This document shows positions 5,386 through 33,562 of a DNA stretch of 36,222 nt, piece after piece; the first letter of the stretch is position 1, and each line of letters opens with the position of its first letter. The stretch covers positions 1 through 36,222 of the forward strand of contig PRDH01000038.1 in NCBI GenBank assembly GCA_003345545.1, read 5' to 3'. The DNA is from Candidatus Thorarchaeota archaeon. GTDB lineage: Archaea; Asgardarchaeota; Thorarchaeia; Thorarchaeales; Thorarchaeaceae. The translations under genes and the position numbers were made by a program. The notes below the pieces were generated by a model. That model made no database searches. It was not told the origin of the DNA and saw only the letters and a program-made list of their open reading frames with translations.

Positions 5386-5496
5386 AGTCCAAGGTGTGAC
5401 GCAGACATAGACAGCGGAAAGACTAGGGAGGACAGAGTCCAGACCTGTTAGTATTGCGGTGCCTCCGGAACCAGTGAAATAGTCAAGAACCAGTGA
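5386..5496 (+). pseudogene. Decayed 3' end of the Zn-ribbon gene family (copy of the end of 336..836)
   Basis: Translates SPRCDADIDSGKTREDRVQTC*YCGASGTSEIVKNQ* versus CPRCNANIDVRTIGEDRIYRCEYCGASGTIEVVKTH*; in-frame TAG at 5449 and first Cys lost. Confidence 0.8.
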
Positions 5497-5728
5497 ATCC
5501 GGCTTCTTCCATCCTTCTCCAGATGACTGGATTTCATTATGTCAGAGATGTCATCGTGAAACCCATTGGGCCATGGATACGCTATCGATGAGCTGGGATG
5601 AACTTGAGCAAATGAGATTATCAAGACAGTCTAGCTAAGAGATTCCACTTGTTGATCTAGGCTTGACAAATGTGATTGTGTGAATTGTCGATATTCATGA
5701 AATAAGATGCCGAGAATGATGATTAGAA

Positions 5729-5837
5729 TGGTGGGCCGGCCCGGATTTGAACCGGGGAACCTTCGCCGTGTGAAGGCGACGTATGTTAGAAGGTCAAGAA
5801 GTCTGACCCAATCATAACCGGGCTAGACCACCGGCCC
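5729..5837 (-). tRNA. tRNA-Val(CAC) with 30-nt non-canonical intron at position 23/24 (intron 5783..5812); CCA encoded
   Basis: GGGCCGG/CCGGCCC acceptor, TCGCC-TTCACAC-GGCGA anticodon arm, CCCGG-TTCAAAT-CCGGG T arm; BHB with central helix GTTA/TAAC and bulges TG^A and AT^A. Confidence 0.9.
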
Positions 5838-5860
5838 ATACACTGCGTTCTGGAGCCTGA

Positions 5861-5870
5861 TAGTTATAAG
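5861..5870. promoter_or_regulatory. TATA box (palindromic TTATAA) for tRNA-Val, possibly bidirectional
   Basis: TTATAA at 5864..5869, 27-32 nt upstream of the tRNA-Val 5' end. Confidence 0.65.
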
Positions 5871-5913
5871 AATGACGCTGTGAGGTGGCTCTGCTGATTT
5901 GAGCAAGGAGGTA

Positions 5914-5936
5914 TGCAAGTCGGCCCCGGCCCACCA
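5914..5936 (+). other. Orphan tRNA 3'-end fragment 1 (T-loop to CCA)
   Basis: TGCAAGT-CGGCC-CCGGCCC-ACCA has exact T-loop/T-stem/acceptor/NCCA spacing; no complementary 5' strands adjacent. Confidence 0.7.
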
Positions 5937-6057
5937 TTCCTCCATAATCGCGTTGTCTTCCCCTCTCCGCAGTTGACAGATTGGAAGGACATCATAATTC
6001 CTATCGTTACAGTTATAACCCAAGCAAAAGACCTCCGAATTAGCTGCACCGGATTGT

Positions 6058-6080
6058 TTCGAATCTCGTCCGGCCCACCA
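6058..6080 (+). other. Orphan tRNA 3'-end fragment 2 (T-loop to CCA)
   Basis: TTCGAAT-CTCGT-CCGGCCC-ACCA; AGTTATAA box at 6011..6018 upstream. Confidence 0.75.
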
Positions 6081-6105: not shown

Positions 6106-6327
6106 ATGCCAAGAATAATCACCGATGTTGACAAGTTCCTCAAGATGACCGAGGACGCAAAAGAGTGTCGTGTCAAGAGAGGCACTGATTCGGTCAAACT
6201 CAAGTTGCGTACGAATAGATACCTCTATACTATCATCCTTGAGCCCCAGAAAGCTGAAGAGATTCTCCAGCAGGTGAAGTGCCAGATCATCGAGGCCAGA
6301 ACAGAGCCCGAACCCAAAGAGGCCTAG
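6106..6327 (+). CDS. rpl38e: 50S ribosomal protein eL38
   Basis: MPRIITDVDKFL...A.ECRVKR....VKLKLRTNRYLYT signature. Confidence 0.88.
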   Translation: MPRIITDVDKFLKMTEDAKECRVKRGTDSVKLKLRTNRYLYTIILEPQKAEEILQQVKCQIIEARTEPEPKEA

Positions 6328-30837: not shown

Positions 30838-30865
30838 GAAGGAGTGGTGGACCGGGCGTGATTTG
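30838..30865 (-). repeat. 28-bp copy of the tRNA-Ala 3' end (att-like), distal copy
   Basis: GAAGGAGTGGTGGACCGGGCGTGATTTG, identical to 32230..32257 and 24/28 to 33416..33443. Confidence 0.9.
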
Positions 30866-30971
30866 GCATATGAGCTCTCTTGGCCCTCATCTGAGTTTGA
30901 TTTCAATAGTCATGCTTGTTAGAATATCCTAGTTCCCTGAAGGGAATCTTGTTCTCCGCTAGCTCGGAATA

Positions 30972-32099
30972 TCACTCTCCCTCAAACTGAACGCATTCTA
31001 CCTTTCCTCTAAGCCCTGCTACAAGGCAACGGTTACAAGAAATGCATCGAGCTGGTTCCTGTTTACTGATCTTCGCTTCTTCAGTCCAACGCTGCAAAAG
31101 CGCGGGTTCACTAATCAACGGGCGACTAAGCTGAATCACATCGAAAGCAGCCTTTGGATTTCCGTTCCCTGTCAGTAGCTCAACAACAGTTTCCGGCGAC
31201 CGGATTCCACCTACCAATCCGAACAAGAGACCACTGTCATGAGCTATCGAACGGATAATCGTTGCGTCATCCAAGAAATAAGCCTCACCTACATCCTTCG
31301 GATTCTGACTTGGGTTGGGCCCACTGAATATGACGCAATATGCTCCCGCTTCAGCGAGCCTCTTCGTCAACTCACCTACTTCCTCAGGTCCGACCATTTT
31401 CGAGCTTGAGTCCACCTTCACCTGAATGGGAATATCAACCGCATTCTTCACAGCTCTCACAGCATCCACCATCGCCTTACAACGTCCTTCGATTGTTGCT
31501 CCGGTATATGGGTCATCCACTGGGCGTCTATTGAACGATGGGTCAAAGAATTGCCAAAGCCCATAGTTGTGAGCTCCATGTAGTTCAATCACATCAAATC
31601 CGGCTTTAACTGCACGTTTGGCTGCGTCAGCATACGCCTGAGTGACTCTCTCTACATGGTCCACTGTCATAGCCTTGACTCGAACAACATCCCCCCTAGG
31701 TTGAGGGACCTCCATATCACTGGGTCCAAATGCTATATCGTTGCCAGTGTATTTTGGCAAGCTCCTGCTCCCGCAATGAACCAATTGAGCTGCTGCCAGA
31801 CCACCTGAAGCATGAATCGCCCCAGCAAGGCGTTTCAGGCCTTCAACATCGCTTGCCTTTGAATTAGAGATCATGCGCTTAATCGTCTGTCCTTCATACA
31901 TTACATATTGAAAACCGGTTACCACGACGCCTGCTCTGATCTTGCCATAAGTTTCGATGATGGCCTCCCCGCATATTCCATTCTCTTCCGCCTGACTCAT
32001 CCAGGTAGCGGCCCGCATGATTCGGCTTGATGCAATCATGCCATTTGGCAATTCGAGTTTCTGGAACACAACACGCTCCCAAGTTTCTTGGTCTACCAT
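30972..32099 (-). CDS. NADH:flavin oxidoreductase / old yellow enzyme family with C-terminal Cys cluster
   Basis: RIMRAAT, QLVHCG, RAVKAGFDVIELHGAHNY, VGGIRS, SRPLISEP, CISCNRC...C. Confidence 0.9.
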   Translation of the reverse strand: MVDQETWERVVFQKLELPNGMIASSRIMRAATWMSQAEENGICGEAIIETYGKIRAGVVVTGFQYVMYEGQTIKRMISNSKASDVEGLKRLAGAIHASGGLAAAQLVHCGSRSLPKYTGNDIAFGPSDMEVPQPRGDVVRVKAMTVDHVERVTQAYADAAKRAVKAGFDVIELHGAHNYGLWQFFDPSFNRRPVDDPYTGATIEGRCKAMVDAVRAVKNAVDIPIQVKVDSSSKMVGPEEVGELTKRLAEAGAYCVIFSGPNPSQNPKDVGEAYFLDDATIIRSIAHDSGLLFGLVGGIRSPETVVELLTGNGNPKAAFDVIQLSRPLISEPALLQRWTEEAKISKQEPARCISCNRCLVAGLRGKVECVQFEGE

Positions 32100-32229
32100 C
32101 GAATCAGCTCACATTTTCTAATCCCTCGTGCTCGAAACACAGACTTTTCCACTTTCTTTCATTCGAGTATGAAGGAGCTTCTGATAGAATGATATTCGAT
32201 TAGCATATAGGCTTGGTGTGATGACACGA

Positions 32230-32257
32230 GAAGGAGTGGTGGACCGGGCGTGATTTG
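32230..32257 (-). repeat. 28-bp copy of the tRNA-Ala 3' end (att-like), proximal copy
   Basis: GAAGGAGTGGTGGACCGGGCGTGATTTG, identical to 30838..30865. Confidence 0.9.
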
Positions 32258-32372
32258 ACCCTGTTGTCTTATTCGTGCCCAACGCCTCTTGCAGATTAGA
32301 GTGCAGGCGGGAGATAGATCGAGTTTGATTCTTTTCCGTACATCCAAGAGTAACTATCTAATAATCATGGAA

Positions 32373-33350
32373 TCATTTATGCACTACTCGAAATCCAACC
32401 ACCAGCAGAACTACGACGATGGCTGATAGTGATCCTATCAAGATGATTGCCAACACGACATCGCCGTTATTCTGAGATGATTGGCTATGATTAGGATACG
32501 GATCAGTATTGTCTGCAGGTCCATCAATTGCATATGATCCCAATCCGGAGTAGTCGCTCCACCAGTTGCCAGTATTGGTATTCATGTCGTACCAGTGATT
32601 ATTATCGCCCTCATCATATCCTTGACTGGTCAGGGTGCCAGTTCGCTCATTATCAATAACGTATTCGTCAACATTCCCATTATCGATGAAAGTGTTGTCG
32701 TAGGCTACGTTGTTACTTGAAGTCCCTACAAATACAAGCCCATGTTGAGTGCTATTGGTTATTCGATTGCTGGTAATGATGTTATTATTAGAATAGCGAA
32801 TGTTGATTCCCTGATAGGTGGAATCTGAGATGTTGTTTCCTGAGATTAGACACTGAGATGCTTCATTGAGATGGATGCCCTGAGCCCAGTTCTCACATCT
32901 ATTCTCTAAAACTGTTAAGTTGTCAGTTCCAATGACAATTCCCCCGCCACCTCCCGAACTGGAGATACATGTGTTATTGATTATGGATCCTGTTCCAACA
33001 GCAATGTCAGCTACAAGAATTCCGATATACCTTGACATTATGTGGCAATCACGAATGATGAAGTATGCACTAGTATCTCTAATCGAAATTGCGTTACCAC
33101 GGAGGATACTCGACGTGACATTCAATTGTTCAAGAATGAAGGGATTTCCCTTACTTCCATTTCCAGCAAAACCACCGTCTATGAAGTCTTGATCAGATTC
33201 AATACTGATCGGTTCGTGTAGAATATAGTACTCCGAACTCGGTGTGGAGAGAGCGACAGCTATGGTTGAGGAATTCATTTCGACAGGGATTTGTAAACCC
33301 CAGAAGCAGAGAATCCCAACTAGAAGATAACTGGCCCATCGCAAGTTCAT
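32373..33350 (-). CDS. Cell-surface right-handed beta-helix (NosD/CASH-like) protein with signal peptide and C-terminal TM anchor
   Basis: HEPISI.SD.DF...G.G....PFILE, repeated GI.L..S.N..I..N.I.N, GNWWSDYSG, D.YP, terminal TM helix. Confidence 0.88.
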   Translation of the reverse strand: MNLRWASYLLVGILCFWGLQIPVEMNSSTIAVALSTPSSEYYILHEPISIESDQDFIDGGFAGNGSKGNPFILEQLNVTSSILRGNAISIRDTSAYFIIRDCHIMSRYIGILVADIAVGTGSIINNTCISSSGGGGGIVIGTDNLTVLENRCENWAQGIHLNEASQCLISGNNISDSTYQGINIRYSNNNIITSNRITNSTQHGLVFVGTSSNNVAYDNTFIDNGNVDEYVIDNERTGTLTSQGYDEGDNNHWYDMNTNTGNWWSDYSGLGSYAIDGPADNTDPYPNHSQSSQNNGDVVLAIILIGSLSAIVVVLLVVGFRVVHK

Positions 33351-33422
33351 GGTTCCTCTCCCAAAGGGTCGAATGATTCTATTATTTATTTAAGGTATGA
33401 TTTACGCAATGGTTCCAAGAAG

Positions 33423-33562
33423 TGGTGGACCGGGCGAAATTTGAACTCGCGCCCCGTGAAAACTAGATTCACAGAGTTTCGCGACCTCTTCCATGCCAAG
33501 GAAGCGATCTTTGCCGGCCGCTGCGACAGTTCGCAGCGACTACCGGGCTAATCTACCGGCCC
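33423..33562 (-). tRNA. tRNA-Ala(GGC) with two non-canonical introns: 29 nt in the D loop (33512..33540) and 32 nt at 53/54 (33446..33477); CCA encoded
   Basis: Acceptor GGGCCGG/CCGGTCC gives G3:U70; CTTCC-TTGGCAT-GGAAG anticodon arm; both introns form 9-bp hairpins plus 4-bp central helices (CCGG/CCGG and CGCG/CGCG) with 3-nt bulges; TTTTAA box ~27 nt upstream. Confidence 0.92.

Follow-up and report, generated by a model that had tools for sequence, protein, structure and literature searches.

Two orphan tRNA 3′ ends upstream of rpl38e in a Thorarchaeota genome as probable relics of earlier tRNA-Val(CAC) genes

Between a minus-strand tRNA-Val gene and the gene for ribosomal protein L38e, a Candidatus Thorarchaeota genome carries two short plus-strand stretches that end in CCA and resemble the 3′ ends of tRNAs. 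What are these orphan ends, and how did they come to lie there? The first-pass annotation of the window, that is, of the whole 36,222-nucleotide stretch of DNA that was analysed, had noted them, each behind a AGTTATAA box, and had offered three readings, namely 3′ pieces of split tRNAs, small tRNA-like or decoy RNAs, and fossil att sites. Here, we examined the two ends, called units 1 and 2, together with their boxes and the homologous loci of related genomes. Table 1 gives the features of the locus. Throughout, G000 denotes the genome that carries the window, and other G and L codes denote the genomes and loci of relatives.

Table 1. Features at the tRNA-Val(CAC)/rpl38e locus, in window coordinates.
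Feature	Position	Strand	Basis
Decayed C-terminal remnant of an HTH-repeat/HNH-like gene	5483..5638	+	51 codons after the last in-frame stop
tRNA-Val(CAC), live, CCA encoded	5729..5837	-	Rfam tRNA, 43.7 bits; spliced form is tRNA-Val(cac) by ARAGORN
Box 1, predicted tRNA-Val promoter	5858..5870	-	CATTCTTATAAC on the minus strand; TTATAA 27-32 nt before G1
Unit 1, orphan tRNA-Val(CAC) 3′ end, C56 to CCA	5916..5936	+	20/21 against the tRNA-Val of G003
Box 2, BRE/TATA-like predicted promoter CGTTACAGTTATAAC	6005..6019	+	Most likely for rpl38e
Unit 2, orphan 3′ end of the ancestral tRNA-Val(CAC), T54 to CCA	6058..6080	+	23/23 against G007 and G023
rpl38e (ribosomal protein L38e), locus anchor	6106..6327	+	PF01781, E 4.5e-12

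The live tRNA, the two orphan ends and their boxes

The tRNA that had been named tRNA-Val is a genuine minus-strand tRNA-Val(CAC) running from 5837 to 5729. Its 30-nt intron (5811-5782) interrupts the 3′ strand of the D stem at about position 24/25. When the intron is removed, ARAGORN calls tRNA-Val(CAC) with a normal cloverleaf, and Rfam returned the tRNA match at 5732-5837 in both focused and genome-wide scans. Run over the whole window, default ARAGORN and Rfam at the gathering threshold reported no tRNAs. The G000 assembly (2.69 Mb, 82 contigs, 93% complete) yields just 27-29 tRNA genes with introns allowed, the majority of them interrupted, and hand inspection found more multi-intron tRNAs, including some with T-loop introns ending in GGAACA; neither tRNA-Val(GAC) nor tRNA-Val(UAC) is present in the assembly. 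This agrees with the heavily interrupted Asgard tRNA genes described in a 2026 preprint (10.64898/2026.10.13.758758). With 27-29 genes detected in a 2.7-Mb genome, standard tRNA finders overlook many genes here. Orphan T-loop-to-CCA copies were also seen at two other tRNA genes: one lies 7.2 kb after tRNA-Gly(UCC/TCC) on contig C22, with a 1701-aa ORF and a TnpB-like gene in between, and one follows tRNA-Leu on contig C27.

Three copies of the 3′-end sequence CCGGCCCACCA are present in the 36-kb window, at 5729-5739 (minus strand), 5926-5936 and 6070-6080 (both plus strand), all within the ~350 bp of 5729-6080. The expected number was 0.01, and none of 100 shuffled windows held three copies. 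The box AGTTATAA, found in the window at 5862-5869 and 6011-6018 only, is unremarkable by count alone, as 0.53 copies were expected and 10 of 100 shuffles reached two. The first-pass coordinates of the shared layout were right, with AGTTATAA starting at 5862 and 6011, GCTG at 5893 and 6043, and the terminal ACCA at 5933-5936 and 6077-6080, and the inverted repeat claimed between unit 1 and the tRNA-Val 3′ end was borne out, in that a direct repeat and both inverted repeats were detected. The finer elements of the layout fared less well: GCTG does stand 29-30 nt past each box but is not kept in relatives and looks like chance, and the D-arm-like hairpin described upstream of unit 1 is missing in G017 and G013 and also looks like chance.

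Both boxes can be assigned to genes other than the units. By motif and position, box 1 is the predicted promoter of the minus-strand tRNA-Val, read from the opposite strand, since it shares motif and spacing with tRNA promoters of the same genome: ATTCTTATAAC is found at this spacing ahead of tRNA-Pro(UGG) on contig C81, and other G000 tRNA genes have TCTTAAA- or TCTTTTAA-type boxes there. Box 1 is also homologous to CA(T/C)TCTTAAATAC upstream of the forward tRNA-Val in G003, G018 and G016. Box 2 is a predicted promoter that most likely drives rpl38e. It occurs as one exact copy per genome, always before rpl38e, and the start predicted from it near 6041-6045 would give a 5′ UTR of ~62 nt with unit 2 inside. 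Two caveats that the first-pass annotation had attached to its own readings, that box 1 is the tRNA-Val promoter and that box 2 may serve rpl38e, were therefore well placed. At least six relatives have a near-identical box, CGTTAGAGTTATATC, ahead of a conserved non-coding region, which fits box 2 as a strong promoter; this region has no Rfam match. Two other origins of box 2 were considered and rejected. It is not the end of a repeated element, as each genome holds a single exact copy, nor was it copied from the downstream flank of another tRNA, as the similar box precedes the non-coding region and not a tRNA.

The locus in related genomes

The comparison covered about 28 Thorarchaeota genomes of the same genus together with outgroups, and the locus was read in 23 genus genomes and 29 wider loci. 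In the common layout, rpl40e, a forward tRNA-Val(CAC) and rpl38e lie on one strand, the identities of L38e and L40e having been confirmed. The tRNA-Val of this layout is intron-less or carries a canonical intron, a T-loop intron or both, and its 3′ end lies ~25 nt upstream of the rpl38e start. An intact forward tRNA-Val(CAC) stands immediately upstream of rpl38e in 12 genus members, and the same intact arrangement was found in outgroup Thorarchaeota, Hermodarchaeota and ‘Promethearchaeota’ records; the linkage of rpl38e to tRNA-Val(CAC) spans Thorarchaeota and neighbouring Asgard lineages. Because the outgroups keep the unbroken layout, the broken layout is the derived one. In the G000 assembly rpl40e was not found, which places the left junction of the window locus out of view.

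Over all its 23 nt, unit 2 matches the 3′ end of the intact tRNA-Val of G007 and G023, in which the downstream flank is identical too, and it has no 5′ T-stem strand upstream. The box 2 motif, CGTTA(C/G)AGTTATAAC, precedes rpl38e in 13 of 28 genus members, comprising 11 genomes read at the locus and two added by the count of box 2. In all 11 read genomes, box 2 is followed by a leader of 45-70 nt and then by a tRNA remnant that starts at the T loop. Ten of the 11 also have a complete tRNA-Val(CAC) farther upstream, in one orientation or the other, and in the remaining one (G009) the contig ends there. Genomes with the derived state are scattered over a tree built from the adjacent 1.45 kb, where G007 (ancestral) is sister to G017 (derived).

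We compared sequence identity along the derived locus. Mean pairwise identity among 12 derived genomes is 97% for box 2, 80% for the first 90 nt of rpl38e, 69% for the relic (unit 2), 60% for the spacer from relic to start codon and 46% for the leader. Every live tRNA-Val(CAC) copy that was read in the genus has CCGGCCC as its acceptor strand, whereas in the relic this strand is mutated or lost in 8 of the 12 derived genomes: it reads CCGGCTC in G017 and L056, CCGACCC in G018, CCAGCCC in G013 and CCGGTCC in G016, has a 1-nt deletion in G005 and is unrecognisable in G009 and G011. Constraint on the relic is thus relaxed relative to the live copies.

Unit 1 (CAAGTCGGCCCCGGCCCACCA) and the 3′ end of the forward tRNA-Val that is intact in G003 are the same but for one base. 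In five genomes (G003, G018, G016, G011 and G005) the forward tRNA-Val(CAC) is intact and lies 15-50 nt upstream of box 2, with its 3′ end at the place of unit 1. In five others (G000, G001, G017, G013 and G012) nothing but a 3′ remnant occupies this place, behind an inverted tRNA-Val that has a promoter of its own. The closest relative of G000 is G001, at 88% identity over the matched part of the region; for this pair, the unit 1 segment shows ~55% identity and the flanks on either side 95-98%. The unit 1 acceptor strand reads CCTGTCC in G001, where the CCA is absent, and CCGGCGC in G017, and in G013 and G012 the remnant is scarcely discernible. Conservation across relatives had been put forward as a check on the first-pass readings, and by this check both fragments lose their tRNA features.

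Two relatives also keep the other end of a tRNA-Val. Directly after rpl40e, G017 and G012 carry orphan tRNA-Val 5′ fragments, 2.6 and 3.6 kb before the relic, that stop near position 46 and have no 5′ T-stem strand; in the G012 fragment the anticodon is mutated to TAT. Judged by their sequences, the 5′ fragment and the 3′ relic of each genome are the halves of a dead gene and not a working pair.

Origin of the fragments

These comparisons suggest that the units are non-functional relics of two earlier forward tRNA-Val(CAC) genes, left behind by insertion and replacement, and we put the probability of this account at about 0.85. The status of units 1 and 2 as relics is itself very likely. The comparison shows the homology of the units to intact tRNA-Val genes, their position, the polarity of change, their decay and the promoter assignments; the agent is something we infer. 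In this account the cluster began as rpl40e, tRNA-Val(CAC) and rpl38e in the same orientation. DNA first inserted where the T loop begins would have left unit 2, the stretch from T loop to CCA, joined to rpl38e, with box 2 now standing ahead of it as a new promoter that most likely drives rpl38e. The new upstream tRNA-Val would later itself have been cut in its T loop, and a cassette with an inverted tRNA-Val and a promoter for it, box 1, would have taken its place, leaving unit 1 behind.

Several points count against this explanation or against the units being pure relics. The T arm of the live tRNA-Val is unlike that of either relic, and the order of events is not fully reconstructable; with 5′ fragments that reach only to about position 46 and relics that begin at 54-56, a single clean insertion cannot explain both. 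Unit 2 of G000 still matches the ancestral sequence at 23 of 23 positions, a possible sign of constraint or of recent gene conversion, and it is probably transcribed within the rpl38e 5′ UTR, in which it may have a role. A simple inversion between the inverted 3′-end repeats was also considered as the origin of the minus-strand tRNA-Val and was rejected, as the T and D arms of the live gene represent another allele than the source of unit 1.

As for the agent, the context of an HNH-like gene family, the layout of the locus and the absence of an integrase make a mobile cassette the likeliest candidate. Such a cassette would have been led by an HTH and HNH-like (homing-endonuclease-like) gene whose end is the remnant upstream of the tRNA-Val; we hold this attribution tentatively, at somewhat less than even odds. 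The remnant is convergent with tRNA-Val, ends 91 nt from its 3′ end, is preceded by in-frame stops and is 65% identical (E 9e-17) to the C terminus of a 367-aa protein of G003. Family members are intact in G003 and in G012, where the protein has 557 aa. Kinship of the remnant with a Zn-ribbon ORF at 336-836 of the window was rejected, the two being unrelated.

Members of the family combine several HTH repeats with two copies of a Cys/His module, whose invariant columns are Cys-x2-Cys, His, Gly, His, Cys and His. PHROG families of HNH endonucleases match the family at E 1e-5 to 6e-16, the best ones partly via the HTH part, and matches to Pfam HNH families are weak, at E 0.03 or worse. A profile of the HNH-like module found nothing below E 1 among PDB sequences. 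The structure was modelled confidently (pLDDT 90.9); a Foldseek search with the model gave no match at E 0.001 or better, and the solved structures nearest to it are HNH nucleases, with Z scores of no more than 4.8 and an rmsd of ~5 Å over 75 residues.

The distribution of the family is patchy and multi-copy, with one to eight matches in each of 15 of 28 genomes. At 13 of 24 loci the stop codon faces the CCA end of a tRNA, across a gap of 14-42 nt in 11 of them, where by a rough estimate ~0.02 such loci would be expected by chance; the tRNAs faced are Val-CAC, Val-GAC, Ala, Leu and one other. The full layout of 5′ fragment, cargo, gene, inverted tRNA with promoter and 3′ fragment is present on contig C20 of G012. 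Partial layouts were found on contig C1 of G043 (5′ fragment, gene and inverted tRNA) and, at a tRNA-Ala, on contig C38 of G008 (gene, inverted tRNA and orphan 3′ end), and the window fits the cassette layout as well, its left side lying off the contig. It is possible, if doubtful, that Thorarchaeota cassettes consisting of an HTH and putative HNH-like gene tail-to-tail with a tRNA enter a like tRNA gene at the T-loop region, by insertion or by copying, break it into a 5′ and a 3′ part, bring a replacement copy and have once brought an outward promoter for the ribosomal protein gene downstream, in which case units 1 and 2 would be their footprints. Counted against the cassette are that G000 holds nothing of the gene but the 51-codon remnant and that the tRNA-Ala repeat array of the window has no HNH-like gene nearby. 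The introns or altered T arms of the incoming tRNA might confer immunity to the putative nuclease; if true, such immunity would tie these elements to the heavy interruption of Asgard tRNA genes.

The reading closest to this one keeps the units as relics and changes the agent alone: they would be att duplications from integrase-mediated integration at the 3′ end of tRNA-Val, with a core running from T loop to CCA and the element since mostly lost. In G005, G018, G016, G011 and G003, an intact tRNA, a short insert and an orphan T-loop-to-CCA copy at the original flank are arranged as this would predict; in addition, one gene in G012 is bracketed by 19-nt direct repeats, AATCTCCTCCGGCCCACCA, the tRNA-Ala of the window is followed by two identical 28-nt copies of its 3′ end, and integration at tRNA genes is documented for Asgard elements (PMC8813620). 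We nevertheless consider it unlikely. The live tRNA of the window is inverted relative to the units, and neither the inverted replacement tRNA nor the orphan 5′ fragments of G017 and G012 would be expected from simple integration. Box 2 is single-copy and hence not the end of a repeated element. The tyrosine integrase family PF00589 was not found in G000 or in the inserts of G012, G017 and G001, and a Pfam search of ORFs in the upstream 5.7 kb and in the same three inserts found TPR, HTH, DUF3796, methyltransferase and PrcB_C domains but no recombinase. Of the proposal that the units are fossil att sites, then, the insertion scars in a tRNA gene stand on the comparative data, a recognisable integrase does not, and a strict att site is putative.

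The readings that give the units a present function find less room. Were the units working 3′ pieces of trans-spliced split tRNAs, with their 5′ pieces elsewhere, the order of promoter, ~24-nt leader and 21-23-nt exon ending in CCA would be apt, since it resembles a 3′-half gene; G000 is moreover rich in non-canonical introns, T-loop introns among them, and its assembly is just 93% complete and lacks tRNA-Val(GAC). This is nonetheless extremely improbable in light of the intact tRNA-Val(CAC) that adjoins the units and of the fact that every 5′ start in G000 that pairs with CCGGCCC has its own 3′ end, the complete genes being those of Gly (C7), Val (C38) and two Pro tRNAs (C78 and C81). Two checks suggested with the first-pass readings turned up no partner in G000: a search for 5′ portions ending in ACGAG or GGCCG with a T-loop start and trailer gave only coding sequences and complete tRNAs, and blastn-short searches with the leaders gave complementary matches of 13 nt at the longest, with E of at least 0.9, which is chance level. 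As the assembly is 93% complete, the absence of a 5′ piece is not absolute. The acceptor mutations of relatives have no compensating partner, and the trailers of the G017 and G012 5′ fragments have no complementarity to the leaders. With an intact tRNA-Val(CAC) adjacent, no 5′ partner and decay in relatives, promoter-driven CCA-ending RNAs, whether split-tRNA 3′ pieces or decoys, are unsupported.

A newer role is also very unlikely, be it that unit 2, perhaps with unit 1, has been kept as a processing, stability or regulatory element of the rpl38e 5′ UTR or as a short CCA-ending tRNA-like RNA. Its attraction is that unit 2 lies within the predicted rpl38e leader, that CCGGCCCACCA of unit 2 and the 30 nt downstream are 100% identical between G000 and G001, and that a similar relic stands upstream of rpl38e in a distant Thorarchaeota lineage (L055); TTATAA, furthermore, is a palindrome, so that box 1 could fire in both directions. 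Yet the unit 2 relic is unrecognisable in two genomes (G009 and G011) and bears acceptor mutations or a deletion in six more, and unit 1 is ~55% identical between the two closest genomes. RNAalifold on 11 leaders gave no shared structure and no pairs. Neither of the putative RNAs, of 44 and 38 nt, was more stably folded than shuffled sequence (z of +0.33 and -1.13; from -1.13 to +1.50 with longer versions included), and the Rfam scan returned no plus-strand partial tRNA matches.

Relation to known systems

A split tRNA at this locus would have been the first in Asgard archaea; the units are not one. By themselves the fragments are ordinary, and the locus is of moderate interest for the repeated replacement of a tRNA, the captured promoter and the candidate nuclease family. 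Across close Asgard genomes, one tRNA gene can be followed through a well-resolved series from intact to interrupted, broken and replaced, and rpl38e likely gained a new promoter from inserted DNA. The 2026 preprint on Asgard tRNA genes (10.64898/2026.10.13.758758) reports no general route by which their introns arrive and no tie to known mobile elements, and an unannotated nuclease-like family at tRNA 3′ ends provides a concrete test case for this question.

Fragments of tRNA genes scattered by a mobile element have been described in Caldiarchaeum subterraneum (Sugahara et al. 2012, PMC3293823). There, as here, a tRNA fragment of an older allele lies close to a newer, more intron-rich copy, with inserted DNA in between, in a heterogeneous set of populations or lineages. 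In C. subterraneum, however, the piece comes from the 5′ part of the tRNA and a recombinase gene lies in the insert, whereas the window locus and its relatives show 3′ and 5′ pieces, an inverted replacement tRNA, no recombinase that could be seen and an HNH-like neighbour. Integrative elements duplicate att sites at tRNA 3′ ends (Williams 2002, as cited in PMC8813620), and Asgard examples are given in PMC8813620. The units share with such duplications an orphan direct T-loop-to-CCA copy that abuts the original downstream flank and is patchy in relatives, and differ from them in having no integrase, a ~100-nt insert that carries a promoter and, in the window, a live tRNA on the other strand.

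With the split tRNA genes of Nanoarchaeum equitans and Caldivirga maquilingensis (PMC2237900), the locus has in common short tRNA pieces set apart from the rest of the gene and a promoter-like box upstream. In contrast to those genes, a whole tRNA is present, there is no partner and no pairing leader or trailer, and the pieces decay.

The closest parallels to the candidate cassette are homing endonucleases. The free-standing homing endonucleases SegB, in a tRNA gene cluster, and MobE of phage T4 (PMC2988022, PMC2790892, PMC13096335) are likewise HNH- or GIY-type genes next to conserved genes (for SegB, those of tRNAs), patchy in distribution, with co-conversion of flanks. The present case departs from T4 in its cellular archaeal host, in a nuclease that is putative, in the pairing with an inverted replacement tRNA and in the broken target copies left behind. 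Finally, in ‘fractured genes’ (Dassa et al. 2009, PMC2677866) a free-standing homing endonuclease gene likewise lies inside a host gene and divides it in two. Fractured genes are rescued by split inteins; here, if our reading is right, rescue would have come from the second tRNA copy brought by the cassette.

Orphan copies of tRNA 3' ends

The tRNA-Ala gene of the window is followed by two identical 28-nt direct copies of its 3' end, lying 1186 and 2578 bp downstream (window 30838-33443), each spanning the T loop through CCA and a further 7 nt. The T-stem strand of these copies, CACGC, matches tRNA-Ala(UGC) on contig C70 and not the adjacent gene. In the same genome (G000), tRNA-Gly(UCC) has an orphan copy from the T arm to CCA 7.2 kb downstream (contig C22:3057-10323, L070), and two more such copies are found on C40. 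The C22 stretch between gene and copy holds a TnpB/Cas12f-like gene and a 1701-aa ORF that matched no Pfam family.

One gene family combines HTH repeats with a pair of Cys/His (HNH-like) modules; within the genus it is multi-copy and patchily distributed. In 13 of 24 loci, its stop codon faced a tRNA gene at the CCA end. In two relatives (G003 C145, L039/L088; G014 C22, L076), a complete tRNA-Val(GAC) is followed by the HNH-like gene in convergent orientation, and ∼105 nt upstream of that tRNA lies an orphan 5' fragment of tRNA-Val(GAC), consisting of the acceptor and D arm only, whose acceptor stem differs from that of the complete gene. tRNA-Val(GAC) is present in relatives and was not found in the G000 assembly, where only 27 to 29 tRNA genes were detected genome-wide. 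Over the full window, ARAGORN with default settings and Rfam at the gathering threshold reported no tRNA, though two are present. Immediately past the 3' end of tRNA-Val, at 5611-5705 on the minus strand, Rfam gave a weak match resembling a C/D-box snoRNA (19.5 bits, E = 0.74), probably due to chance.

Features in the window and in compared genomes
Feature	Location	Strand	Remark
tRNA-Ala	window 33562-33423	minus	gene with 3'-end copies in region 30838-33443
HNH-like family members	window 5483-5638; L005:2040-3143 (G003); L017:1220-2893 (G012); loci L071-L100		
T-loop introns	G000 C78:21508-21647; C44 near 96079; C81 near 16540		in tRNA genes
T-loop introns	G001, G008, G010, G017		in tRNA-Val
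L101-L106	G017, G013, G003, G018, G007, G002		box CGTTAGAGTTATATC and conserved non-coding stretch

Shared T arms and T-loop introns

The T arm and acceptor 3' strand of tRNA-Val(CAC) (window 5729-5757) are identical over 29 nt to those of tRNA-Pro(UGG) (G000 C81:20308-20336). In the closest relative, G001, the T arm is different and contains an intron. This pattern suggests gene conversion between tRNA genes. Several different tRNAs contain T-loop introns of 26 to 30 nt, which follow TTC(A/G)A and have GGAAC(A) as their end; they look like a single intron type at a single position.

A box resembling box 2 and the layout at L055

A box nearly identical to box 2, the probable rpl38e promoter, is CGTTAGAGTTATATC, found in at least six relatives upstream of a conserved non-coding stretch of ∼190 nt or more. 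This stretch had no match in Rfam, and it may represent the leader of an rRNA or a stable RNA that lacks annotation. A distant lineage, Thorarchaeota Yap125.bin7.129 (L055), shows such a layout independently: behind tRNA-Val stand the promoter CACCCTTATAAC and then a leader, and the relic of a tRNA 3' end comes next, ahead of rpl38e.
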